Source of the DNA: Candidatus Bathyarchaeota archaeon
Lineage (GTDB): Archaea > Thermoproteota > Bathyarchaeia > TCS64
Reading direction: 5' to 3'
NCBI GenBank assembly: GCA_018396865.1
Contig: JAGTRB010000001.1
Span: forward strand, 133,970 to 197,969
Length of the DNA stretch: 64,000 bases
The translations under genes and the position numbers were made by a program. The notes under the pieces are model-generated. The model saw nothing but the letters and a program-made list of their open reading frames with translations, ran no database searches and had not been told where the DNA came from. Positions 12,922 through 25,697 of this stretch are shown here, piece by piece (position 1 is the first letter of the stretch; every line of letters starts with the position of its first letter).

Positions 12922-13374
12922 TTAGGGGATATCCTCCGGAACTCTTCTTTTAACCCACCCCACTGAGTCAAAATCGTCATCATATGAAACTATCGTTTCC
13001 ATGGAAAGCTCTTTCAGAGCTTGAACCGCGAGGGCATCGTCGAAATCCAAGCCATAATCCTTCATCATGAAGGTAGCCCTTATCCGGCCCCTTAACCCCA
13101 TAGGATAGATCTGGAGCCCCCTATAGCGGAGGAGGGAGGACAGGAACAATGCCAGCTCCTCCCAGGTTTTACCGTAATTCTCCATGACAACTAAGATAGA
13201 GTCCACGTGGAAGTCCGTTATCGCCGACCTGATGGAGCCCTCCCTCACCCTCCTCAAGAATCTTTTACAAGCCTCTGCATGCTGCTCCGCCAATGCCACC
13301 TCTAGGAATATGTTCGAGTCAATTAACACAGCGGTATCCAAGGGCCTTCCCAGCCCTGATTCTCCGAGCCTCAT
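12922..13374 (-). CDS. vapC: PIN-domain toxin (VapC-like); start uncertain
   Basis: AVLIDSNIF N-terminal strand, DDALAVQALKELSMETIVSYDDDFD; upstream overlapping RHH gene. Confidence 0.65.
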   Translation of the reverse strand: MRLGESGLGRPLDTAVLIDSNIFLEVALAEQHAEACKRFLRRVREGSIRSAITDFHVDSILVVMENYGKTWEELALFLSSLLRYRGLQIYPMGLRGRIRATFMMKDYGLDFDDALAVQALKELSMETIVSYDDDFDSVGWVKRRVPEDIP

Positions 13375-13609
13375 GCTGAAGCTCCACCCCAGACCTCTCA
13401 ACGTGGGAGAGCATGCCATAAATAGCCTCCACCGGATCCTCTACGGATTCTGCGACCTCGAGGACCTCCGAGACCTGAGATAGCCAAGCGCTGAAGGCCT
13501 TCTCGGAGGCGACGCTCAGCGACCCCCGGCCATAGCCGTAAAGCCTCATCGCGGCCTCCCTGAACCTCCGCTCCAGCTCGTCGGGTATATAAACCTTGAT
13601 TCCACCCAT
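13319..13609 (-). CDS. vapB: RHH (CopG/Arc-type) antitoxin
   Basis: MGGIKVYIPDELERRFREAAMRLYGYGRGSLS typical RHH; overlaps PIN gene. Confidence 0.55.
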   Translation of the reverse strand: MGGIKVYIPDELERRFREAAMRLYGYGRGSLSVASEKAFSAWLSQVSEVLEVAESVEDPVEAIYGMLSHVERSGVELQHEARRIRAGKALGYRCVN

Positions 13610-13848
13610 CTTAATTCCTAAATTACTAAAGGAATAAAGACCTTTATATCTTTTGGCCCATAGATCTCCCACTGCCCTAGACCCCAGAGGAATGGATGTG
13701 CCTTGTATATGAAAATTGAAAAAGATGCCCGAGAAACAAATTCAGGATCGAGAAGGATTGGAAAGCATGGTCTATATCCCAAGGAGGTATCAATTCCTGT
13801 ATATAGAAAGTTGATTATATTGATTTTGTTGATTTAATCTTAAGTTTT

Positions 13849-14433
13849 TTAAATATTGATATCTCTATAATATCTTGTGCTTGGACAACCTAAACATTTG
13901 TTTTCATTATATCTAAGACATTTTCCGCAATTTATGCCACACGGTGCATCTTCTTCAGATTTATCGGTGAAGAGTCTTATTGGTATGAATTTAGGTAATT
14001 CTGGTGTTTCACCTATTATCACCTCGGAGCGTCTGATTCCCTTATGAACCCTTATGGAGCAAACCTCAACCATAGAATTCAGAGTATCCATGTCTTCAGC
14101 GATCATGATAGTCATCAAATTATATTCTCCAGTGGTTCTCGTTATGAAAATGGCTCTAGGACATTTAGAAAATATTTTCATCAATTCTCTCTGAAGCTCG
14201 TGAGTTTCAGCCTCACAATTTACTATCACAATTCTAAATCCTAGTTTATCTATGTTCATTCCAGCATAGATATTTACGAGATTTTCTTCACATAGATTCT
14301 TCAATCTGTTCCCTACCGCTACATGAGATAGCCCGAGCATCCTGCCCATCGAGCTGAGAGAGGCTCTTCCATCCCTGAGGAGTATTGAATAGATCCTCTT
14401 ATCCAGCTCATCCATCATTACAAAATGTAACAA
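13849..14433 (-). CDS. Lrp/AsnC-family transcription regulator fused to C-terminal Cys-rich (CX3CX2C...CX2C) metal-binding tail
   Basis: N-term HTH (LSSMGRMLGLSHVAVGNRLKNL) plus RAM-like domain; tail CGINCGKCLRYNENKCLGCP; divergent from molybdoenzyme operon; AT-rich. Confidence 0.7.
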   Translation of the reverse strand: MLHFVMMDELDKRIYSILLRDGRASLSSMGRMLGLSHVAVGNRLKNLCEENLVNIYAGMNIDKLGFRIVIVNCEAETHELQRELMKIFSKCPRAIFITRTTGEYNLMTIMIAEDMDTLNSMVEVCSIRVHKGIRRSEVIIGETPELPKFIPIRLFTDKSEEDAPCGINCGKCLRYNENKCLGCPSTRYYRDINI

Positions 14434-14446
14434 AAGAGATATATTT

Positions 14447-17149
14447 ATGTTTCTAATTTATAAACTGGCTGTGATGAAAGATACAAGTCTTATTTTGTCA
14501 GCTTCTTCGGAAAGCGATGAAGATATAGAACTGAAGTACGGATATTGCAGAAATAACTGCATGCTTCATTGCGGAAGGATAGCCGTTGTGAAGAATGGAA
14601 GGGTTGTTGAAATTCGCGGTTGGAAAGGCCATCCCATAAGCGACGGGAAACTCTGCGCTAAGGGATTGGCTGCGATCGATGACACGTACAGTGAAAACAG
14701 GATTCTTTACCCGATGAAGAGGGTTGGAGAAGAATTTGAAAGAATTGGCTGGGAACAGGCACTGAACGAAATTGCTGAAAGGCTCCGAGAAATACGTAAG
14801 GAATGGGATGGAAAGCCTCTTCATGATATGACTGCCGAGGAGCTTAGAAGGGTCGCTCGGTATGCTACTCCAAGAAACTCATGTGGAGAGGCAGAATTTT
14901 TAATTTATATGAGGTTCGGTAGGGCATTCAAATCAGCCCCCCACTATTCTGGATGCATAGCTTGCAACGGCAACTGGTGGAGAGCGCGACTCGCCGTTAC
15001 AGGACACGAGCACCCAGTCAATCCTATAGACACTATCATTGACTCTAAACTCATCTTAGACTTTGGTTATAACATAGCCGAAACAGCTGTTGTAGCCTTT
15101 AAGTGGATAAGAAAAGCGAGGGATAATGGAGTAGAGTTCATCTACATCGACCCTAGGTATACAAAAACAGCTGCTGGAGCAAGCGAATATATACCCATTA
15201 GACCAGGAACTGATGGCGCATTAATCCTAGGAATAATGTATGTCCTCATAGAAAACAATTGGACCTATCCGTACCTGCAATATTATGTTGACGAGAAAGA
15301 GTATGAAGACTTCGTTGAGAAGGTTGTTAAGAAATATCCTCCGGAGAAAGTTGAGAAGATCACATGGGTTCCATCAGCTAAGATAAGAGAGTTAGCACAG
15401 AAAATCCATGAAGCTGGACGTAAAGTTGCTATAATCTCCGGCTCGCGCACGAGCACACAGACAAATGGATTCGATACCGGAAGATTATTTGCTATATTAA
15501 ATTTGATGATTGGCTGTTATGGGGTATCTGGAGGCGGAGACTACAACCCTAAACCGGGAGTCGTCCCCTCCCACTATATTCCATGGGCTGCAGCGGCTCC
15601 ACATAAATATCCAGAATTCATGTACCCCGATGATCCACACCACTGGGGTAAGGGCTGGATTCCCGAGGCCGCCTGGCCTCAGGTAAAAGAACAAATGAAA
15701 GCATATATCGGTTTAGGTGGAAACCCGATTGTCCGGGCAGCAGGAGATCAGCGAGGGGTCTTTGAACACTTGAAGAAGAACGGGTTGGTGGTAGTTGGCA
15801 CAGCTGAATGGAACGAAATGTGCGATTATGCCCATTACATACTTCCATTGACAACCGATCTCGAGTCATCGGGTTCAACAATTTTATGTTCAACCAATCG
15901 TGCCGTGCAATGGAAGGATGCAGCAGTTCCCCCGCTTGGAGAGGCTAAACCCGACTGGTGGATCATGAATGAACTAGCCCATAGAATATTCGGGGATGAA
16001 ACCATGTTCAGGGAATGCCCAGACTGCGAAAGGAGGGTAAAGGAGATTCTAAGACAAGGAGGCATATTAGACGAGGCTTGGGAAGAACTTATAGGGCAAT
16101 ATCTCGATGAAATCCACACACGCCTATCAAAGGGAGAGAATATAGACGATATCGCCGCTGACCTTGCCAAAAGAATCGGTCATGATCCAAGTAATCACAA
16201 ATATGTCATAAGAAACATTGAATTACGCTACCGTTTAGAATTTAAAAAGTTGGGTGAAAAGGTCGGATTTGACCTTGACAACCATGGCCTATTATGGCCC
16301 TACAACATATTCAAGCAGGGACCAGAAGCAATATACTGGTACTGGTGGAAATTCAACATGATTTTATGGCCAGTACCACCAGGATCCCCTGCAGAGAAAG
16401 AACCAGAAAAATATCATCCATTCTCAGGGCTTAGGCTAGATATCGTGAAACAGAGGGGCGTCGTCTACTTCCCAGCCCCACTGTTTCTGATGGAGGAAGA
16501 CCCCAACTACCGCGGGGAGAAAGTTGAATTCGAGAGATGTCCAGGGTGCTGGAAAAAGAGCACAGAGATGGGGTTACCCGATATACCCCTACTTTGGACC
16601 CCATCTGAAAGGTGGAATGGCAAGACGGGGGGCTTCTATCCATGGAAGGCTGGGAAGGCTTACATTGACCTGAAAGGGGAAACATGGAATGGCGCAGGCC
16701 TTCCAGAGTGGAAAGAACCGGCGGAATCTCCTAAAGACACAAGTGAAAAGATCGATTGGAAAGAAGAATATCCTTTGGTAATGACCACTGGCAAGCTTAC
16801 ACATCTGATGACTGGCCACAGCCAAAACATTAACGAACTTCTTTTAAGGATTGATGAAAAGCCTTCTGTTTGGATCCATCCATCCACCGCTGAATACTTA
16901 GGAATCAAGGATGGAGATATCGTCAAGATAATAACTCCTAGGTCGCCCAAAAACGGCCTGAAAATGAGGGTTAAACTGACTGCGCGTATTCATCCAAAGA
17001 TAGTATTCGTACCAACCCACACGGGTCCGAAGGCGATAAGTGAAGATTTCCGAAATGAGGGTGTAATGCTTGTAACATCAACGGGTGAGGATCCATACAC
17101 AAGAATGGTTGGATATAGCACAAATGCTTGCAGAGTTGAGAAGGTGTAG
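14447..17149 (+). CDS. Molybdopterin (Mo/W-bisPGD) oxidoreductase catalytic subunit, DMSO-reductase/formate-dehydrogenase superfamily, no Tat signal
   Basis: N-terminal FeS motif C-x3-C-x3-C-x27-C (YCRNNCMLHCG...KLCAKG), ~890 aa, molydopterin-binding regions, no RR motif; start may be ATG 14474. Confidence 0.8.
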   Translation: MFLIYKLAVMKDTSLILSASSESDEDIELKYGYCRNNCMLHCGRIAVVKNGRVVEIRGWKGHPISDGKLCAKGLAAIDDTYSENRILYPMKRVGEEFERIGWEQALNEIAERLREIRKEWDGKPLHDMTAEELRRVARYATPRNSCGEAEFLIYMRFGRAFKSAPHYSGCIACNGNWWRARLAVTGHEHPVNPIDTIIDSKLILDFGYNIAETAVVAFKWIRKARDNGVEFIYIDPRYTKTAAGASEYIPIRPGTDGALILGIMYVLIENNWTYPYLQYYVDEKEYEDFVEKVVKKYPPEKVEKITWVPSAKIRELAQKIHEAGRKVAIISGSRTSTQTNGFDTGRLFAILNLMIGCYGVSGGGDYNPKPGVVPSHYIPWAAAAPHKYPEFMYPDDPHHWGKGWIPEAAWPQVKEQMKAYIGLGGNPIVRAAGDQRGVFEHLKKNGLVVVGTAEWNEMCDYAHYILPLTTDLESSGSTILCSTNRAVQWKDAAVPPLGEAKPDWWIMNELAHRIFGDETMFRECPDCERRVKEILRQGGILDEAWEELIGQYLDEIHTRLSKGENIDDIAADLAKRIGHDPSNHKYVIRNIELRYRLEFKKLGEKVGFDLDNHGLLWPYNIFKQGPEAIYWYWWKFNMILWPVPPGSPAEKEPEKYHPFSGLRLDIVKQRGVVYFPAPLFLMEEDPNYRGEKVEFERCPGCWKKSTEMGLPDIPLLWTPSERWNGKTGGFYPWKAGKAYIDLKGETWNGAGLPEWKEPAESPKDTSEKIDWKEEYPLVMTTGKLTHLMTGHSQNINELLLRIDEKPSVWIHPSTAEYLGIKDGDIVKIITPRSPKNGLKMRVKLTARIHPKIVFVPTHTGPKAISEDFRNEGVMLVTSTGEDPYTRMVGYSTNACRVEKV

Positions 17150-17152
17150 GAG

Positions 17153-17731
17153 GTGGGGGAAAAAATGTATGGAATACTCGTTGATGTAGACGAATGTATA
17201 GGATGCCATGCCTGCGAAGTCGCATGCAAAAACTCGCATGAGTTTCCAAAAGAGATCATGGTGCAACGGGTTATTTCAGTTGAGGAAGGCGAATTCCCCT
17301 CGGTCAAAATTCTTCAATCACCTGTTGAGAGGTGCATGCACTGTCTAGAACCAGCATGCGTTTCAGCATGCCCATTCGGCGCAATAACAAAGACCGAGCG
17401 GGGACCAGTAATTATAGATCACGAGAAATGCACCGGATGCCAGCTATGCGTAAAAGCATGCCCATGGAAAATTCCGAAGTTCAACTTAGAAACAAGGAAG
17501 GTTTACAAATGCGACCTATGCTACAATAGACTCCAGGAGGGCCTACATCCAGCATGTGTTGAAGTCTGCCCGGTTGGAGCATTAAAATTTGGAGATCGTG
17601 AGGAACTCCTCAAAGAAGCCAAATCCAGGAAGAGGTATGTTTACGGCGAGGTTGAGGCTGGCGGTACATCGCTCATTTACGCCTCGAATGAGCCTTTAAC
17701 AAAGATAGGCTTACCAAAACTGATTCCATAA
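17153..17731 (+). CDS. Four-cluster [4Fe-4S] ferredoxin-type electron-transfer subunit (FdhB/PsrB/DmsB-like)
   Basis: Four Cys clusters: CIGCHACEVAC, CMHCLEPACVSACP, CTGCQLCVKACP, CDLCYNR...CVEVCP. Confidence 0.8.
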   Translation: MGEKMYGILVDVDECIGCHACEVACKNSHEFPKEIMVQRVISVEEGEFPSVKILQSPVERCMHCLEPACVSACPFGAITKTERGPVIIDHEKCTGCQLCVKACPWKIPKFNLETRKVYKCDLCYNRLQEGLHPACVEVCPVGALKFGDREELLKEAKSRKRYVYGEVEAGGTSLIYASNEPLTKIGLPKLIP

Positions 17732-17734
17732 GAA

Positions 17735-18025
17735 TTGGAGATTTTAGCCCTTAACCCAGATGCGCAGAGGGCATTTGCCGAATTTCGTTTAGCAATTCTA
17801 AAAGGCGATAAAATATTGTCGCAAAGGGTCAAACGGCTTCTCGCGATTGTTGCATATGCGGTGGCTGGATGTGAGGAGTGCGTAGAAGAATGCACAAAGG
17901 AAGCACTTTCAGAAGGAATAAAAGGAGATGAAATACTTTATGCTCTTACGGTAGCATGTCTCGTTAATGGAGGCTCAGCCCTTAATACCTGTAAAAGGGC
18001 ATTCAAAATTCTCAGAGAAAAATGA
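17735..18025 (+). CDS. AhpD-like / carboxymuconolactone decarboxylase family core-domain protein
   Basis: AVAGCEECVEECTKEA (CxxC-x3-C in place of CxxCxxxH), 96 aa; TTG start. Confidence 0.55.
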   Translation: MEILALNPDAQRAFAEFRLAILKGDKILSQRVKRLLAIVAYAVAGCEECVEECTKEALSEGIKGDEILYALTVACLVNGGSALNTCKRAFKILREK

Positions 18026-18037
18026 AGATATTTAAAG

Positions 18038-18406
18038 GTGAAAAATAAAGTGAAGGAAGAAGTTTCAAAGAAAATTGAAACATTTAAAGAGGAATTCGGC
18101 AAGATATTAGATCCAGTAGCCTTTATAAAAGAAAAAGATGAAGAACTATGCAAGGCCTTCCTGGAGCTTCATGAACTTACAGTGAATAAGGGAGTTATAT
18201 CCAAAAAGCTGAAATTTTTGATGCATGCCGCCATAACAGCTTCATTACACGATGTTGAAGCGACCGCGATGCACCTTACAGGCGCACTAAAGGGGGGCGC
18301 CACCGACGATGAGATACTTGAAACAGCCTTCACGATAATACCTGTAGCAGGAATGCCAGCCTTCTCGATTTTCCTTAATGCCATTAGAAGAGTAAAACCA
18401 TTATAA
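18038..18406 (+). CDS. Carboxymuconolactone decarboxylase (CMD) family protein, Cys-less
   Basis: 122 aa, CMD-like helical pattern HAAITASLHD...; GTG start. Confidence 0.5.
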   Translation: MKNKVKEEVSKKIETFKEEFGKILDPVAFIKEKDEELCKAFLELHELTVNKGVISKKLKFLMHAAITASLHDVEATAMHLTGALKGGATDDEILETAFTIIPVAGMPAFSIFLNAIRRVKPL

Positions 18407-18430
18407 ACACCATGTTGAAGATGAGAACGG

Positions 18431-18754
18431 ATGATTGAAATCAAACCCCTCGAGACGCGGTCCAGAACCGCATTAGGTCTCGAGATAAGAAACCCAGAGG
18501 CGCCTGAAAAGCCAGCCATCATAGTGGTGATAGCGAGGAGGGGCCTATTGGTCTGCGGAAACTTCGATATAGATGAACTTGAAAAGAGGAATGTAACTGC
18601 AGCTAGAATAGTCGGCTTAACAAAAATTGAAGATGTTCTGCAGAGAGATGTTGTTTCTGTAACATCACGAGCTGAGGCGTTGGGCGTTGTTTCTGGAATG
18701 TCTTGGAGCGAAGCTTTCGAAAAAATGAATGTCAAAATCAATGAAAAAAGATGA
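18431..18754 (+). CDS. DUF1805 (YunC-like) family protein
   Basis: LLVCGNFDIDELEKRNVTAARIVGLTKIEDVL...GMSWSEAF resembles DUF1805 consensus. Confidence 0.4.
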   Translation: MIEIKPLETRSRTALGLEIRNPEAPEKPAIIVVIARRGLLVCGNFDIDELEKRNVTAARIVGLTKIEDVLQRDVVSVTSRAEALGVVSGMSWSEAFEKMNVKINEKR

Positions 18755-19300
18755 GTGAAATTCATGATTCAAATCAAAATCACCGATAAAACCCCCTGTC
18801 TCCTTGAACCAAGAAAACTCCAGATAACCGCCCAGGCTAATGAATCCTTAAATGAGATCATCCCCATACTCTATTTGGCTATACCGCAATCGCAGTATTC
18901 GAAGGCTTTCGGCTCCATAACCTTCCTATTGGAGGGAAAGCTTGTAACAGTTTACTCTTCAGGGAGAATCAATCTTGGCTGCGTTTTTAGAGAGGAGATC
19001 GCAGTAAAACTTCTAGAAAAATTAAAAAATTTACTTATCAAAGCTTTAGAGTATTATGAAAAGTATGGTACTCCAGACCTCAAGCTCTTAGATATTAGAA
19101 AAAAGCTTAACCCAATTGAAATATACAGTCATCTACCAAAAACAAACTGCAAAGAATGCGGTGAACAGGGATGCTTCGCCTTTGCTGCAAAACTCGCAAA
19201 CGGAAAAAAAACCTTACAAAATTGCCCCCAAATTCAATTACCCCAATACAGTAAAAACAAGGCATACCTAGAGAAAATGTTGCAACCTATAAAATTATAA
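18755..19300 (+). CDS. Uncharacterized N-domain fused to RnfB/AcsC-type Fe-S cluster domain (PF04060-like)
   Basis: C-terminal LPKTNCKECGEQGCFAFAAKLANGKKTLQNCP (CxxCx4Cx16C); paralog of 23978 gene. Confidence 0.55.
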   Translation: MKFMIQIKITDKTPCLLEPRKLQITAQANESLNEIIPILYLAIPQSQYSKAFGSITFLLEGKLVTVYSSGRINLGCVFREEIAVKLLEKLKNLLIKALEYYEKYGTPDLKLLDIRKKLNPIEIYSHLPKTNCKECGEQGCFAFAAKLANGKKTLQNCPQIQLPQYSKNKAYLEKMLQPIKL

Positions 19301-19352
19301 GATAATTCGTGATAAAGATGCTTGATCTGAGTGGAAAGGGGAAAAAGGTAAA

Positions 19353-19742
19353 ATGATGAGTATGCCAAAAATAGGGATTGTTGCATGCAACAGTGGTGCT
19401 TCAAACACAGGATACCTAACTGGGTTGGCTGCACTTAAAGCTGTTAGGATTTTTGGAAGTGAGAAGGTTGGAATCTGCTCATTGCCTGCATTGGCTAACA
19501 ACACTCCAAGACAAACAATGCTTACTAAAAAAATCGAACATCTTATCGTTATTGATGGTTGCCGCAATGAATGTGCAAGAAGAATATTAGACAGTTTAGG
19601 AATTAAATATGAAAATTACTTAAATCTTGAATATGATCTTCAAATCAAAAAATTGGGACCATTTACAACCATGAATTATTCCATAAAAGATCTTGAAAAA
19701 GTTTCTTCAGCAATTATAAAAAAGATACAAGAGATATATTAG
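19353..19742 (+). CDS. DGC-domain protein (putative zinc-binding)
   Basis: IVACNSGAS...IDGCRNECAR motif, 129 aa. Confidence 0.6.
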   Translation: MMSMPKIGIVACNSGASNTGYLTGLAALKAVRIFGSEKVGICSLPALANNTPRQTMLTKKIEHLIVIDGCRNECARRILDSLGIKYENYLNLEYDLQIKKLGPFTTMNYSIKDLEKVSSAIIKKIQEIY

Positions 19743-19996
19743 CTTGGAATTAAATCTATGAGAAAATGGTATTTGCTAAGTCTTCTCATATTTAAAAAAT
19801 ATAAGAATAATGCCTTTCAACATTAATTAAATAATAAAATTAGCTAACTTACTTACAAAGAACGAAAGTTATGATAAAGATGTGTTAGACTTCGAAGGAT
19901 AAAAAGAAGTTCTTTTTACTTACAATCTGTAATAAAGTTTCAAATTATAACAAAATGTATATAAAAGCCCATTTTTAATTTTTTTGAGGGTTTATT

Positions 19997-21472
19997 TTGT
20001 CTGTTGAAGTCTTTCTTTCCTTTTTAAGGAACCCTCTGATAAGACCTATGATTCGCTCTTCTATATCTCCTAAAAATAGGAGAAACTATTTAGAATCTGC
20101 ATTAAATGGCTTAGTTGGAAACAAGACTTCATATTCTTTGAATGAAATTATTTTCTCAAGAATAATTGGTTTGGTTCTAAATCTTGGATTTTTGGCTTTC
20201 GATATCGATAAAAAAGATGCTATCAACTCCCTTAAAATCCCATACTTTAGAAACGGTCTATTTAATGTTCTAGATAGTATAGGTAAATATGGTGTAAATA
20301 AACCCTTAGTACTTTCAGCACCCTTTCTTGTTGTCTGGAACTATACTAATGCCTGTAATCTTAAGTGTAAGCATTGCTATCAAAGCGCGGATAAGCCTTC
20401 CCCAGACGAGCTAACAACGGAAGAGAGTTTTAGGATCGTTGATCAGTTAAGCGAAAGCAAAGTCTCAGCCATTGCATTCTCCGGAGGAGAGCCTTTAATT
20501 AGGGAAGACCTCTTTAGAGTCGCTAGATATGCCCACGATAGGGGTCTCTACGTCTCAATAGCCACAAATGGAACCTTACTAACTGATAATGTGGTGGAGG
20601 AACTTAAGCAGAGTCGTGTTGACTACATAGAGATAAGCCTAGATTCATCAAGGGAAGAGAACCACGATACATTCAGGGGTGTGAGAGGAGCCTTTAAAAG
20701 AACAATGGAGGGAATAAAAAATGCTGTAGAAAAAGGATTTTATACATGCATAGCCATAACCGCTACAAAAAATAACATTAATGAAATTCCTGATATGATT
20801 GACATCGCTAAAAAAATCGGTATTAAGAGAGTTATAGTTTTCAATTTCATACCCACAGGAAGAGGTAAAGAAATCGAAGATCTTGACCTATCTCCAATAG
20901 AAAGGGAAGATCTTCTTAAATACTTATATATGGAGCTAGTTGAGGGGCGAATAGAGGTCCTATCCACAGCTCCACAATACTCAAGGGTATGTTTGCAGCA
21001 GTCCATCGCAACCAGGAGGGGTTTCCTCGCTCCGACCCATTTCGCGGCTCTCGACCTCCATGGGAGAACAAAGAGGTTAGCAGACTTCATAGGGGGATGC
21101 GGTGCAGGAAGGCTTTACTGCGCAATCCAGCCCAACGGCCAAGTAACTCCCTGCGTCTTCATGCCCATAGTTGTTGGCGATCTCAGGAAGCAAAGCCTAA
21201 GGGAAGTTTGGCTGAACTCAGGGGTTATGAACGACCTAAGAGACAGAAAAAGACTAAAAGGAAGATGTAGAAACTGCAAGTATAGAGATCTCTGCGGTGG
21301 ATGTAGAGCCAGGGCATACGCATATTATGGAGACTATTTAGCACCAGACCCAGGATGTATAAGGGAATTGGAAGAGCCAAGCACCCAGTTTTCAATTATC
21401 TCAGCAAAACCTTCAATAACAGTTTCTTCTTCTAGAAATCCAAATTTAAAAGATAATATTTTCTCGATGTAA
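19997..21472 (+). CDS. Radical SAM enzyme with C-terminal SPASM domain and ~110-aa N-terminal extension
   Basis: CNLKCKHC (CX3CX2C), GGEPL; SPASM clusters CGAGRLYCAIQPNGQVTPC and CRNCKYRDLCGGCRARAY; TTG start, alt ATG 20048. Confidence 0.8.
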   Translation: MSVEVFLSFLRNPLIRPMIRSSISPKNRRNYLESALNGLVGNKTSYSLNEIIFSRIIGLVLNLGFLAFDIDKKDAINSLKIPYFRNGLFNVLDSIGKYGVNKPLVLSAPFLVVWNYTNACNLKCKHCYQSADKPSPDELTTEESFRIVDQLSESKVSAIAFSGGEPLIREDLFRVARYAHDRGLYVSIATNGTLLTDNVVEELKQSRVDYIEISLDSSREENHDTFRGVRGAFKRTMEGIKNAVEKGFYTCIAITATKNNINEIPDMIDIAKKIGIKRVIVFNFIPTGRGKEIEDLDLSPIEREDLLKYLYMELVEGRIEVLSTAPQYSRVCLQQSIATRRGFLAPTHFAALDLHGRTKRLADFIGGCGAGRLYCAIQPNGQVTPCVFMPIVVGDLRKQSLREVWLNSGVMNDLRDRKRLKGRCRNCKYRDLCGGCRARAYAYYGDYLAPDPGCIRELEEPSTQFSIISAKPSITVSSSRNPNLKDNIFSM

Positions 21473-21546
21473 TAGAAATGAGTATTGAAAGCTTCAAATC
21501 AATTATACCTCTTATTTATGAAATCTCTTTTCAGGAGTTTATCTCT

Positions 21547-21948
21547 CTATATAATTTTTATGAGTAGCTGAATATTTTTCATCACTTCAGACCTTGAAAC
21601 ACTATAGAAGGTCCATTTTCCCTTTCTCCTTTTCTCGATCAAACCAGCATTTTCAAGTATATTTAAATGATGAGAAATATTAGACTGTGAAATATTTAAT
21701 ATCATCACGATCTCACAGACACACAAATCATATATATTTAAAAGACTTAAAATTTTTATCCTTGTAGGATGTGATAATGCCTTAAAAACTCTACTAACGT
21801 TCCTTACCTTCTCTTTAATACTAAAAACGTCATCTTTAAGTTCTCTCAATCTTTCTTTATATTCATCTAAGTCCTTAATATCGAGTAAACCGGACTCAAC
21901 CAATCTTTTTAATTGTTCATCTATAGCAAAATCTTTCAACAATTTCAA
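21547..21948 (-). CDS. arsR: ArsR/SmtB-family metalloregulator
   Basis: ALSHPTRIKILSLL...CVCEIVMILNISQSNISHHLNILENAGLI winged HTH with CVC metal site. Confidence 0.75.
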   Translation of the reverse strand: MKLLKDFAIDEQLKRLVESGLLDIKDLDEYKERLRELKDDVFSIKEKVRNVSRVFKALSHPTRIKILSLLNIYDLCVCEIVMILNISQSNISHHLNILENAGLIEKRRKGKWTFYSVSRSEVMKNIQLLIKII

Positions 21949-22213
21949 GAGTTCCCCCTATCATGGTCAACCACCTCCAGCTAATAAATAAATGAATTTA
22001 AATATTTTGATTTAATGGAGTGGAGTTTCAAAGGGATCCTTTCTTTCCCATACCTCTTAACTGCTAATAATCCTTGAGTTATGAGGGCTTCCCCGCTCGA
22101 ATGGAAGACATGAATCAAAAAATTTAAATATTTCGATTTGAGCTTGAAGCGAAGGATGTCAAATAAAAGAGAAAGACGCGAAGATTATGTCTTTAAGGAT
22201 GGAGGTGTCGTTG

Positions 22214-22573
22214 ATGGAAAGGGTTAGGGTTGAAATTTATGAGGGGGATCCCTTCGTGGGCTGCTGCGGGCCTAGAATAGCCTCTAAGGAGGATGTTGAT
22301 AGGCTGAGAAATATGCTTACTGAGAGAAACCACATAATAAAAGCCTTGAAAGAAGAATTTAAGGACAAGATAGAGATTGAGAGGGATATAATAAGCACTC
22401 GAAGGCGGCTTGAAACATATCCAAGGCACATCTATAAGCTTCTAGTAGCTGGCATAAAGGTGCCATTCGTCGTTATAGAAGGCCAGCTCGCCCTAGAGGG
22501 GGAATTCCCCAACCTCGAGGAATTCAGGAGCCTCATAAAAGAGCATATTGATAAGCGTCATAAAAGCCCCTAA
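22214..22573 (+). CDS. ArsD-like arsenical metallochaperone/repressor family protein
   Basis: VEIYEGDPFVGCCGP vicinal Cys near N-terminus like ArsD Cys12-Cys13; ~120 aa thioredoxin-like fold pattern. Confidence 0.5.
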   Translation: MERVRVEIYEGDPFVGCCGPRIASKEDVDRLRNMLTERNHIIKALKEEFKDKIEIERDIISTRRRLETYPRHIYKLLVAGIKVPFVVIEGQLALEGEFPNLEEFRSLIKEHIDKRHKSP

Positions 22574-22594
22574 ATTTAAAACGCTGGTGGTATT

Positions 22595-22876
22595 ATGAAG
22601 AAGGTTGTCGCTGAGGTGCTTGGTCCAAACCCACCATGTTATAGATGCATGGAGCTTAAGAAAAACGTCGAGGCTGCTGCTAAGAGGCTTGTAGCTGAGG
22701 GGATAGAGGTCGAGGTGAAGAGGCTCGACATAATTTCGAGGGAGGCCATCAGGAGGTATGGCCTGCTTCTCTCCCCAGCGTTAACGGTTAACGGGGTTGT
22801 CGTGACCATGGGCTGGATACCAGACGAGGAGGTCGTCGAGGAGATCCTGAGGGAGGCTGCAGATAAGCGATCATGA
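22595..22876 (+). CDS. Thioredoxin-like redox-active disulfide protein (Thioredoxin_3 type)
   Basis: 93 aa, CxxC as PPCYRC, LTVNGVVV pattern. Confidence 0.65.
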   Translation: MKKVVAEVLGPNPPCYRCMELKKNVEAAAKRLVAEGIEVEVKRLDIISREAIRRYGLLLSPALTVNGVVVTMGWIPDEEVVEEILREAADKRS

Positions 22877-22885
22877 GGTGAGAGT

Positions 22886-23917
22886 TTGAATAGTATTCGA
22901 CTCCTCCGAACCGGTCTTCTGCTGGGCTTTGTATTGGCTGTCTTCGGAGCCCTGATCTATTCTAGGATTATGGCATACTCCCTAGCGCCAACCATGAAGC
23001 CAGCCCACTTCCAGGGGCTGAGCCCCTGGGAAATACCCTTGGCATACATCATAGATTATCTAAGCCATGGTTGGCTCTGCCTGCTCTTCGCCTTCGTTGC
23101 CGCGGGCCTCGTCTACGAGTTTATGCCAAAGGAGGTGATCACCAAGTATATGGGCAGCAGCAAAGCCATGGGATACGCTTTAGGTGCGGGTATCGCGCCC
23201 TTCTTCACGGTCTGTTCATGCACCATGGTACCGCTATTCGCAGGCATACTTTACACCGGCTCAGGGATCGGTCCAGCCATAACCTTCCTCTTGACGGCTC
23301 CAGCAGCTAACATATTAACAATCCTACTTACAGGAGAAATCCTATCATGGGAGTTGGCCATCGTCCGAGTGATAGCATCCCTTACAACCGCTGTCGCAGC
23401 TGGTCTAATAATCTCGAAAACACCCTGGGGAAAGACCGTCGAGGAGGAGCATCAACTCACCAGCCAAAATCCTCAATATAATGTTCAGATCGTAAAGCCG
23501 CTTTTAGATGAGAGATTATTGGCAGCATTAAAGTTTAGCAGCTACCTTGCGAAGAGGATCCTACCCTACTTTTTCCTAGGCCTTGTGGTGGTCAGCTATG
23601 TTGAGGCTTACATGGCTGAAGAGGTTGTAGCCACATACCTTACTGGGATCAGCGGAATACTCCTTGCCTCCGTCATAGGTGGACCACTATATACGCCCAC
23701 CCTTGTTGAGATAGTCCTAGGAAGGGGCCTGATGGACCTAGGGATGTCAAAGGCAGCGATGCTCTCTTGGCTGATGGGCCAACCATACGATATCCCCAAC
23801 ATGATCGCAACCTCCAGGATAGTGCGTTGGAAGGTCGTTCTGACCTACGCAGTAATAGCGTGGATCTTCAGCGTCACATTCGGCTTAACTTACGGCCTTC
23901 TCTCGAGATCCTTATAA
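22886..23917 (+). CDS. Predicted permease of the DUF318/ArsP-like family
   Basis: Multi-TM 343 aa with conserved TVCSCTMVP Cys motif; TTG start. Confidence 0.65.
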   Translation: MNSIRLLRTGLLLGFVLAVFGALIYSRIMAYSLAPTMKPAHFQGLSPWEIPLAYIIDYLSHGWLCLLFAFVAAGLVYEFMPKEVITKYMGSSKAMGYALGAGIAPFFTVCSCTMVPLFAGILYTGSGIGPAITFLLTAPAANILTILLTGEILSWELAIVRVIASLTTAVAAGLIISKTPWGKTVEEEHQLTSQNPQYNVQIVKPLLDERLLAALKFSSYLAKRILPYFFLGLVVVSYVEAYMAEEVVATYLTGISGILLASVIGGPLYTPTLVEIVLGRGLMDLGMSKAAMLSWLMGQPYDIPNMIATSRIVRWKVVLTYAVIAWIFSVTFGLTYGLLSRSL

Positions 23918-23977
23918 AAAATCATATATAAATGAAAGAGGAAATAAATATTAAAAGAGATATGGTTTGATAAAGGA

Positions 23978-24613
23978 ATGAGTGAGATAGATATTTTCAA
24001 GAAGATGCTGGAGGCAGAGGAGAGGAGAAAGAGGAGAGAGAAATCACTAGTCAACGTTATAGAGATAAGGAAGGTCCTCCCCTGCCTTACAACCCCTGGC
24101 TACATCAGGTTCGAAGCCATGGCTGATAGAGAAATTGGGGAGGTCATCCCCCTGATCTTCCTCCAGTTCCCTCCTGGAAGGTCACACTACAACCCGGCCG
24201 AGGGGACGCTGACCCTGAACATCTATAATAGGATGATAACCCTCCACCCGGACGGAAGGGTCGCCGTCACCAATACAAGGGACCTCGAGGAGGCGGGGGA
24301 GGTTCTCGAGAAGATCAAGTCCTTCATTAACAAGGCCTACTCAACATATTTACGAACCGGGCCGCCAGGCGAGGATGCGGTGGAGGCAGCCATGAAGATC
24401 TCATGGATGGACATATACCAACACCTCCCGAAGACCAACTGCGGAGAATGCGGATACCCAACATGCCAAGCCCTGGCTCTCAAGGCTCTGCTAGGTGAGG
24501 CCAAGCTCTCCCAATGTCCAAGGCTGACAGAGGCTAAATATCTCTCCTCTCGGAATGGGCTGAAAAGGGATCTCGGCCCATTCTTAGCCAAAACCTTGGG
24601 ATTGGATATATAA
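23978..24613 (+). CDS. Uncharacterized N-domain fused to RnfB/AcsC-type Fe-S cluster domain (paralog of 18755)
   Basis: LPKTNCGECGYPTCQALALKALLGEAKLSQCP; N-domain aligns with 18755 protein. Confidence 0.55.
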   Translation: MSEIDIFKKMLEAEERRKRREKSLVNVIEIRKVLPCLTTPGYIRFEAMADREIGEVIPLIFLQFPPGRSHYNPAEGTLTLNIYNRMITLHPDGRVAVTNTRDLEEAGEVLEKIKSFINKAYSTYLRTGPPGEDAVEAAMKISWMDIYQHLPKTNCGECGYPTCQALALKALLGEAKLSQCPRLTEAKYLSSRNGLKRDLGPFLAKTLGLDI

Positions 24614-25051: not shown

Positions 25052-25306
25052 ATGGTTGAGAAGATTAGGGTTGGAGTTCGAGGGCAGGTGGTCATCCCTA
25101 GAAGGCTTAGGAAAAAACTGAAGCTTGAACATGGAACCATCCTTATGGTGGAGGAGACCGGGGATGGGCTCCTCTTAAGGCCGTATGAACCTGTGAAGGA
25201 GATGAAAGGGCTGGGGAGGGGAATCTTCGGAGACCCGATTAAATATCAGAGGAGAATCCGAGAAGAGTGGGGTGCAAAAAAGCTTGAGGATCGCGTTGGA
25301 CACTAA
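25052..25306 (+). CDS. vapB: AbrB/MazE-family (SpoVT/AbrB swapped-hairpin) antitoxin
   Basis: KIRVGVRGQVVIPRRLRKKLKLEHGTILMVEE; overlaps downstream PIN gene. Confidence 0.6.
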   Translation: MVEKIRVGVRGQVVIPRRLRKKLKLEHGTILMVEETGDGLLLRPYEPVKEMKGLGRGIFGDPIKYQRRIREEWGAKKLEDRVGH

Positions 25307-25697
25307 CATACTCATATATTTTCTTGAGGGGATAGAGCCCTACTCTAGTAGGGTTGAGAGCCTCATGAACTCCTTCATGAAGGGAGACAACGAGGGGATA
25401 ATCTCAACGATAAATGTCGCAGAGATCTTGACAGGATTCTATACATCAGGGGATGAAGATGGAGCAGCAAAGACGAAGATGCTCCTCACAGACCTCACTC
25501 TAAACAATTTTGAGATAGTCCCAGTCACCTTTGATATCTCCGATCTAGCCGCAAAGCTTAGGGCGAAGAGGGGAGGAAGGCTGCCCGATGCATTGATTGT
25601 AGCCACGGCGATAAACCGAGGAGCTGAGATTTTATTCTCTAATGATGAGGACATCAAAAGGTTCGAAGAGGATATTAAGGTTTCAAAACTCGAATAG
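25272..25697 (+). CDS. vapC: PIN-domain toxin (VapC-like)
   Basis: IALDTNILIYFLEG, VAEILTG, DALIVATA, FSNDED acidic residues. Confidence 0.7.
   Translation: MQKSLRIALDTNILIYFLEGIEPYSSRVESLMNSFMKGDNEGIISTINVAEILTGFYTSGDEDGAAKTKMLLTDLTLNNFEIVPVTFDISDLAAKLRAKRGGRLPDALIVATAINRGAEILFSNDEDIKRFEEDIKVSKLE

Follow-up and report, generated by a model that had tools for sequence, protein, structure and literature searches.

How to read a pair of small iron-sulfur proteins whose N-terminal half matches no catalogued domain is the question raised by a 64,000-nucleotide stretch of contig JAGTRB010000001.1 from a Candidatus Bathyarchaeota archaeon (assembly GCA_018396865.1; hereafter the window). A first-pass annotation of the window had singled out two genes (A and B, Table 1) whose products share this N-terminal domain and end in an Fe-S domain, and had suggested a modular sensor or relay function. 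Profile searches and structure prediction give the two parts an identity: each protein is almost certainly a compact, two-domain, cytoplasmic protein that consists of one repeat of the TATA-box-binding protein (TBP) type followed by a helical [4Fe-4S] domain of the family PF04060. Members of the family with this architecture (TBP-FeS) occur in Archaea as well as in Bacteria and recur in gene clusters of the type that handles arsenic.

There is direct evidence that A and B are paralogues. Both open reading frames (ORFs) exist at the coordinates originally given, and a pairwise BLASTP alignment of their products (174 aa, E=7e-34) has 33% identical and 56% positive positions and contains all the conserved positions listed at first sight (PCL..P, E.IP, GR, LEK.K, and G.P). 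The ORF of A begins with a GTG at 18755, and its likely true start is the ATG at 18764 (Met4), which yields 178 aa and is the start used by NCBI and by the homologues. B comprises 211 aa and carries a charged N-terminal helix of 25 aa, a trait of the B-type. Each has a counterpart among the Bathyarchaeia proteins of NCBI: B is 100% identical to protein P0001 of a metagenome-assembled genome, and A is 100% identical to P0046 over 98% of its length. No third family member was detected in the window by a local HMM and motif scan. Because A and B fall into two distinct orthologue groups, each with its own orthologues elsewhere (55-87% identity), and differ strongly in G+C content (0.375 in A versus 0.524 in B), the duplication is ancient.

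The identity of the C-terminal domain is well supported and agrees with the initial proposal of a domain shared with RnfB and the corrinoid iron-sulfur protein (CFeSP). The motif LPKTNC-x-ECG-x3-C-x16-CP is present in both proteins as first described, and both score about 50 bits with the Pfam model, for which the cut-off is 23 bits. The predicted cluster ligands, spaced C-x2-C-x4-C-x16-C, are Cys132, Cys135, Cys140, and Cys157 in A and Cys155, Cys158, Cys163, and Cys180 in B; all four are invariant in 52 of 52 aligned relatives. Among the sequences of the PDB, a narrow full-length profile (A1) matched the N-terminus of the CFeSP large subunit (E=2.3e-13) and RnfB (E=2e-4). Foldseek comparisons of the predicted structures are in agreement, with 2ycl_A and 4c1n_G recovered at a probability of 1.0 and an rmsd of 1.3-2.2; the A model matches CFeSP 2ycl_A with an rmsd of 1.3 Å and 47% identity over 57 columns, and the C-terminal part of the B model matches the cluster domain at the N-terminus of the CFeSP large subunit.

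Neither protein is a complete homologue of these enzymes. The NCBIfam models of the ACS gamma subunit and of RnfB match A and B only over their first 50-60 positions and far below the whole-protein cut-offs: NF003195 yields 62 and 55 bits, confined to profile positions 1-59, versus a cut-off of 306, and TIGR01944 (rnfB) yields 25 bits versus a cut-off of 68.7. The NCBIfam models for MobB/FeS fusions also match the Fe-S domain of A and B. The likeness to the CFeSP large subunit (AcsC/CdhE) and RnfB, which is evident by HMM, profile, and structure, includes the common ligand spacing. However, PF04060 is N-terminal in AcsC/CdhE and RnfB and C-terminal in A and B, which possess neither the TIM-barrel/corrinoid part of AcsC nor the ferredoxin domains and membrane anchor of RnfB; in their case, the partner of the Fe-S domain is a TBP repeat.

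The N-terminal domain was rightly described as unrecognised by databases, since no Pfam or NCBIfam model covers residues 1 to ~125 of either protein. It is nevertheless not a novel fold but a divergent, single TBP repeat. The AlphaFold2 model of B (mean pLDDT 91.4, pTM 0.83) has the predicted order beta-beta-alpha-beta4-alpha, compared with beta-alpha-beta4-alpha in a TBP repeat, followed by the helical C-terminal part, and Foldseek aligns its residues ~28-127 with many archaeal and eukaryotic TBPs in the PDB over ~82 aa (rmsd 2.3-2.5 Å, probability 1.0). The model of A (pLDDT 91.2, pTM 0.80) has the TBP of P. woesei (1ais_A) as its top match at a probability of 1.0 and aligns with TBPs over ~80-84 aa at an rmsd of 2.7-3.3. 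The TBP-like domain begins at residues 4-7 in A and at residue ~26 in B, and each protein contains a single repeat; there is no two-repeat saddle.

Sequence comparisons lead to the same result. A broad profile (A4), built from 42 diverse N-domains and searched against all PDB sequences, matched the TBPs of M. jannaschii (2z8u_A, E=6.4e-11), P. woesei (1pcz, E=4.4e-7; 1ais, E=1.8e-6), and Sulfolobus (1mp9, E=1.4e-5), with eukaryotic TBPs at E-values of 1e-3 to 5e-2; it aligns to both TBP repeats with a composition bias of zero. The narrow profile A1 also recovered the M. jannaschii protein (E=1.7e-5). In the reciprocal test, the Pfam model of TBP (PF00352) matched 16 of the 42 N-domains at E<=0.1, the lowest E-value being 1.7e-5; it was the only Pfam family to recur among the 42. 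A and B themselves gave no match to PF00352, and the relatives with listed bit scores for this model reached 19.5 and 19.1, which is under its threshold of 22.9. Because the profile matches TBPs and the TBP model reciprocally matches N-domains, the relationship between the N-domain and TBP is one of true homology, beyond a shared fold.

The alignment of N-domains shows which features are inherited and which are specific to the family. The core '...(F/Y).SGK....T....EEA...', together with a conserved Tyr, is the signature of TBP; the addition is an extra N-terminal strand that ends in Pro-Cys. This Pro-Cys position (Cys15 of A, Cys36 of B) is conserved in 40 of the 42 sequences of the broad alignment, and its Cys is invariant in all of the 52 aligned relatives, which have exactly five invariant cysteines, the four of the cluster motif and this one. 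TBP-FeS thus shares the TBP-type repeat, its core, and the fold with TBP and, presumably, with archaeal monopartite TBP-domain proteins, such as halobacterial TbpA and the ~95-aa proteins of Thermococcales (Brindefalk et al. 2013, PMC3597702). By contrast, TBP-FeS differs from TBP in having a single repeat instead of the double-repeat saddle, in the extra strand with its Pro-Cys, in the fusion to an Fe-S domain, and in its occurrence also in Bacteria.

The homology to a DNA-binding repeat raises the possibility that two TBP-FeS proteins dimerise into a TBP-like saddle on TATA-like DNA or compete with TBP and TFB, in either case gated by the cluster. Archaeal monopartite TBP-domain proteins provide a precedent (PMC3597702), and the intergenic region next to the ArsR gene of the window contains TATA-centred palindromes (Table 1; AATCAAAAAATTTAAAT and ATTTAAATATTTYGATT), whose 18-mer class has four matches in the window where 0.07 would be expected by chance. 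Such direct binding is, however, very improbable. The family has members in Bacteria too, where TBP and TFB do not exist, and its fused forms already possess a winged helix; the net charge of the N-domain (-5 to +7 across the family) is neither conserved nor basic, and the extra strand precedes the equivalent of strand S1 of TBP and, judging from predicted secondary structure and profile, probably fills the edge of the inter-repeat junction. The palindromes are more simply explained by the ArsR regulator, of which they are probably the operator, overlapping both promoters.

The combination of the two domains is not peculiar to this pair; it defines a database family of about 244 clusters, the role of which is predicted only. 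In a set of 1.84 billion representative proteins, an exhaustive search with the N-domain profile alone retrieved 244 clusters (at 50% identity) with E<=1e-3, of which 67 reached E<=1e-10. Three candidates (P0139, P0146, and P0190) were rejected as false positives with multi-stretch matches to repetitive Ig-like or coiled-coil sequences. A typical member has 175-210 aa and consists of the TBP-like domain and PF04060. Archaeal members occur in Bathyarchaeia, Hecatellales, Methanomethylicaceae, Promethearchaeota, Helarchaeota, Methanosarcinales/ANME-2, Methanotrichaceae, and Archaeoglobi; bacterial members occur in Natranaerofaba (Firmicutes), Deferrisomatales, and Anaerolineae.

Other members deviate from this architecture by lacking a domain or carrying an additional one. 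Some are only ~100 aa long and comprise just the TBP-like domain. In a first class of fusions (265-292 aa), an ArsR-type winged helix precedes the two domains; the profile of this extension matches the ArsR-family structures 1y0u (E=2.2e-10) and HlyU (E=2.4e-7), six of six members match the Pfam model HTH_5, and the extensions shown are without cysteine. In a second class (~253-283 aa), the extension is a DUF3343 'Se/S-carrier-like' domain, for which three of eight members match PF11823 (best E=9.9e-16) and the extension profile found no match among PDB sequences. The third class (340-384 aa) carries an N-terminal domain of 160-200 aa that has no match in Pfam. A and B themselves contain no winged helix, as neither Pfam nor NCBIfam yields a helix-turn-helix match at E<=1.

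The names in current use reflect little of this. NCBI lists the family as '(Fe-S)-binding protein', and many members are named 'ArsR family metal-binding transcriptional regulator' in IMG, including members without a helix-turn-helix, so that the name is misleading for the majority that lack the winged helix. COG4871, described as 'metal-binding transcriptional regulator with putative Fe-S cluster and ArsR DNA-binding domain', probably corresponds to this family. No literature on the family was found except for a mention in a study that also reports the monopartite TBP-domain proteins of Thermococcales (Brindefalk et al. 2013, PMC3597702). There, Q8TJ64_METAC, a protein with a winged helix and a TBP domain, appears as an isolated, rare architecture, with no mention of Fe-S. 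This protein probably belongs to the TBP-FeS family; it shares the combination of winged helix and TBP domain with the members of 265-292 aa, whereas A and B lack the winged helix. As far as found, no description exists of the pairing of a TBP repeat with a [4Fe-4S] domain, of the presence of this pairing in bacteria, or of the fixed place that it holds in ars-type islands.

The initial idea of a modular sensor or relay is reasonable. The reading that we favour, tentatively and at somewhat less than an even chance, is that TBP-FeS is a sensing or co-regulator switch module and that its partners are winged-helix regulators. The fifth Cys and the state of the cluster, which may be reduced or oxidised or may have suffered damage from As(III), soft metals, or oxidants, would report redox stress or stress by thiophilic metalloids or chalcogens. 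In the fused forms, the module would control the DNA binding of the Cys-free ArsR-type winged helix in cis; where it stands alone, as in A and B, its target in trans would be the adjacent ArsR regulator or an adjacent Lrp/AsnC regulator with a Cys-rich tail, as in the pairs CopZ-CopY or ArsD-ArsR. The outcome would be a tuned expression of the surrounding genes for permeases, thioredoxins, exporters, and the Mo enzyme. The logic, in which the state of a cluster or thiol is passed on to a DNA-binding domain, is that of FNR, IscR, NsrR, SoxR, and WhiB-like sensors and of the CopZ-CopY and ArsD-ArsR relays. However, TBP-FeS has no relationship to any of these in sequence or fold, and it is the fusions and the gene neighbourhood alone that point to sensing.

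The link to regulators is supported by the winged-helix fusions and by ArsR and Lrp/AsnC neighbours that recur from archaea to bacteria. In a set of 36 non-redundant loci with clustered ORFs (35 loci for counts of regulators), an ArsR or a Cys-tailed Lrp/AsnC regulator is present at 23 of 35 loci and lies within 1,013 bp of 14 family genes. ArsR is encoded at 17 of the 36 loci and the Cys-tailed Lrp/AsnC regulator, often as a divergent partner, at 10. Other recurrent neighbours are Thioredoxin_3 (Trx3; 13 of 36), the permease ArsP_1 (12), an ABC ATPase (11), TauE (10), a DGC protein (9), a 116-aa ferredoxin-like protein (9), an ABC-2 permease (8), Acr3/SBF (7), Mrp/ParA (7), a NifX-like protein (5), an ArsC-like low-molecular-weight (LMW) phosphatase (4), DUF169 (4), a radical SAM/SPASM protein (4), and DsbD_TM (3).

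Two arrangements stand out. The unit '>ArsR >TBP-FeS', with the genes 9-98 bp apart, occurs at five loci (L003, L008, L017, L018, and L034), and the unit '<Lrp/AsnC-Cys >[TauE] >TBP-FeS', which converges on an ABC exporter, occurs at L012-L016; at L012 and L015, TBP-FeS is monocistronic and divergent from the regulator. The same neighbourhood spans Bathyarchaeia, Asgard archaea, and bacteria, where the gene orders are ArsR-ArsP-Trx3-Trx-DsbD_TM-TBP-FeS-Acr3-LMWPc (L036), ArsR-ArsP-Trx3-TauE-FmdE-TBP-FeS-DUF169 (L038), and Trx-DsbD_TM-(521 aa)-TBP-FeS-XdhC-FeS, with further genes for Trx3, DGC, rhodanese, FmdE, and DUF169 (L037). One winged-helix-fused member (P0156) lies between ArsR and DsrE/F/H, with Acr3, rhodanese, and an ArsC-like phosphatase nearby.

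The closest relative (L009, N-domain 86% identical) has the order '<Acr3 <Lrp/AsnC-Cys >A-type >rSAM/SPASM <ArsR >128-aa ORF >Trx3 >ArsP >B-type >SNase', which is the layout of the window without the genes for the Mo enzyme, the 4Fe-4S subunit, the two CMD proteins, and DUF1805 and without DGC. In the window, therefore, it is between the Lrp/AsnC regulator and A that the Mo operon lies. Another Bathyarchaeia contig (L035, 3327-7563) has the order 'ArsR >Mo enzyme >4Fe-4S-CMD >CMD >DUF1805 >DGC >A-type'. The association of the Mo operon with A-type genes is therefore recurrent, being present in L035, but not obligatory, being absent from L009. Nor does every family gene terminate a metal or redox cluster, as had been claimed for A and B: the A-type gene of L009 adjoins the Lrp/AsnC regulator, and elsewhere the genes are monocistronic, follow ArsR, or stand in mid-operon.

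The same neighbours also allow a different function, in which TBP-FeS is a carrier of electrons or thiol redox equivalents, a ferredoxin-like donor to Thioredoxin_3, Trx/DsbD_TM, a CMD/AhpD-like protein, DGC, or the Mo enzyme; the [4Fe-4S] cluster would possibly operate with the fifth Cys, by analogy to ferredoxin:thioredoxin reductase or Hdr-type chemistry. This is rather unlikely, although several lines of evidence favour it. The characterised roles of PF04060 are all in electron transfer (RnfB and CFeSP), and the similarity to both proteins is strong. In L036 and L037, TBP-FeS comes immediately after Trx and DsbD_TM, and in L003 after DsbD_TM; both the window and L035 have it at the end of the Mo-enzyme/4Fe-4S/CMD/CMD/DUF1805 operon, and in the bacterial clusters it takes a mid-operon position. 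However, the role of a plain carrier accounts neither for the conservation of the TBP domain nor for the invariant Cys outside the cluster or the fusion to a winged helix, and at many loci (L012, L015, L017, and L018), TBP-FeS has only a regulator beside it and lacks an obvious redox partner.

The DUF3343 fusions direct attention to a third possibility, an accessory role in the trafficking of sulfur, selenium, or metal cofactors, in which the invariant Cys would bear a persulfide or metal(loid), with the cluster gating its transfer; this would serve the maturation of Mo, W, Ni, or Fe-S enzymes or the handling of chalcogens and metalloids. Besides that 'Se/S-carrier-like' class, with its three matches to PF11823 among eight members, evidence comes from Natranaerofaba carboxydovora (CP054394; L007, 4974-12528), where TBP-FeS lies between a 336-aa DUF3343 protein upstream and CooC-CODH-ACS-AcsC. 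Sulfur-related neighbours (DsrE/F/H, rhodanese, and TusA with NifU and cysteine desulfurase) and neighbours related to metal cofactors (XdhC, FmdE, NifX-like proteins, Mrp/ParA, and a W-containing AOR with NifX and ParA) fit as well, as do the matches of the MobB/FeS fusion models to the Fe-S domain and the report of TBP domains fused to homologues of MoeB (PMC3597702). We nevertheless consider trafficking unlikely, because each of these neighbours is infrequent (at most 7 of 36 loci) and most are uncharacterised themselves, a single Cys is a weak signature, and the signal from ArsR, ArsP, and Trx3 is stronger. Two observations made at these loci stand apart from the question of function. The arrangement of TBP-FeS and DUF3343 genes in L007 may correspond to one of the unassigned ORFs in the acs clusters of acetogens, and in L037 (7001-8897), the gene for an XdhC/CoxI-type Mo-cofactor chaperone is located between two PF04060 proteins, the TBP-FeS of 181 aa and another of 176 aa.

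Several points weigh against a switch module acting with winged-helix regulators. The fusions to a winged helix account for only ~7 of 147 representative clusters, and no regulator was seen in the retrieved flanks of 12 of the 35 loci. The locus set was seeded with an alignment of B-type proteins only and is weighted towards archaeal B-type relatives, and its counts are raw, with no matched background. In the bacterial loci, the mid-operon position among Trx, DsbD_TM, Acr3, and the LMW phosphatase is that of an effector-like gene. The N-domain varies in charge and so shows no hint that a surface for binding nucleic acids is conserved, and the ArsR regulator of the window has its own As(III)-type CVC site, so that a partner sensor is not obviously needed. 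To our knowledge, PF04060 transfers electrons in every characterised protein that contains it (RnfB and CFeSP) and is not a sensor in any.

In the window, A and B are each part of an operon that is divergent from a regulator gene (Table 1). The genes ahead of A are those originally named, a Mo-bisPGD oxidoreductase, two CMD/AhpD-like proteins, and DUF1805. The oxidoreductase has 900 aa and no obvious Tat signal; it is neither ArrA nor Aio (53.7 bits versus a cut-off of 1600) but generically Fdh-alpha/PhsA-like, and a reading as arsenate respiratory reductase was therefore rejected. The divergent Lrp/AsnC regulator, with the Cys-rich C-terminal tail CGINCGKCLRYNENKCLGCP, may be a metal- or redox-sensing variant of Lrp. 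The radical SAM/SPASM protein encoded downstream of A has an N-terminal extension of 100 aa, and its gene adjoins A-type genes also in L009, L012, and L016. Ahead of B, the Thioredoxin_3 and ArsP_1 permease genes are as first proposed, whereas the supposed ArsD-like ORF (22187-22573, + strand, 128 aa) has no detectable similarity to ArsD: it matches neither PF06953 nor any other Pfam or NCBIfam model or PDB sequence, and only its GCCGP motif resembles the Cys pair of ArsD. Only L009 and L010, the two closest relatives, share this ORF.

Table 1. Location of the genes, domains, and sequence elements of the TBP-FeS region in the window, with the supporting match where one was recorded.
Feature	Position	Strand	Evidence or remark
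Lrp/AsnC regulator with Cys-rich C-terminal tail	13849..14433	-	Pfam HTH_AsnC-type E=5e-11; divergent from A operon
Upstream genes of A operon: Mo-bisPGD oxidoreductase, 4Fe-4S subunit, two CMD/AhpD-like, DUF1805	14447..18754	+	
Paralogue A (TBP-FeS, A-type)	18755..19300	+	ORF, 181 aa from GTG 18755
A: single TBP-like domain, aa 1-116, Cys15 in 'PC' motif	18755..19102	+	family N-domain HMM E=6.9e-32
A: PF04060 [4Fe-4S] domain, aa 127-158	19133..19228	+	Pfam FeS E=1.4e-13, 50.7 bits
Downstream of A: DGC-domain protein, AhbD/NirJ-like radical SAM/SPASM protein	19353..21472	+	
Radical SAM/SPASM protein	19997-21472	+	nearest AhbD/NirJ-type heme-modifying enzymes, 312 bits vs cut-off 500
ArsR/SmtB regulator, CVC motif	21547..21948	-	Pfam HTH_5 E=1.7e-21; NCBIfam metalloregulator ArsR/SmtB 98.9 bits vs cut-off 55; divergent from B operon
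TATA-centred palindromes, two copies 126 bp apart	21984-22013, 22110-22139	.	ArsR/B-operon intergenic region
Upstream genes of B operon: 128-aa GCCGP-motif ORF, Thioredoxin_3 (MTH895/ArsE-like), ArsP_1 permease	22187..23917	+	
Paralogue B (TBP-FeS, B-type)	23978..24613	+	ORF, 211 aa
B: single TBP-like domain, aa 23-139, Cys36	24044..24394	+	family N-domain HMM E=5.1e-37
B: PF04060 [4Fe-4S] domain, aa 150-181	24425..24520	+	Pfam FeS E=1.9e-13, 50.3 bits

A patch of low G+C content extends from 13.8 to 22 kb (ArsR 0.289, DGC 0.336, Cys-tailed Lrp/AsnC regulator 0.374, A 0.375), whereas the window averages 0.499 and paralogue B has 0.52. The patch may represent an island that is mosaic or was acquired horizontally. 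The island is flanked by VapBC-like toxin-antitoxin pairs at 12922-13672 (- strand) and 25052-25697 (+ strand), each consisting of a PIN-domain toxin and a MazE/AbrB-type antitoxin or small ORF.

The assignment of a TBP repeat and a [4Fe-4S] domain provides a concrete structural identity for a family that is widespread among anaerobes and has been vaguely or wrongly named. That a monopartite TBP-domain family exists in both Archaea and Bacteria bears on the origin of the TBP fold (PMC3597702). It is conceivable, if quite improbable, that the family is a surviving lineage of free-standing, single-repeat proteins, which predates the duplicated TBP of archaea and eukaryotes or is its sister, and whose function is that of a cluster-gated switch in the binding of nucleic acids or transcription factors. 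If true, the TBP fold would have been at first a redox- or metalloid-responsive module common to Bacteria and Archaea that was recruited only later as a general transcription factor. A gene network that comprises ArsR, ArsP, thioredoxin, DGC, and Acr3 is found in Bathyarchaeia, Asgard archaea, methanogens, and anaerobic bacteria, and the family recurs as a part of it. Knowing its role, be it in sensing, electron relay, or the carriage of sulfur or metalloids, would help to explain how uncultured anaerobes handle arsenic-type stress.

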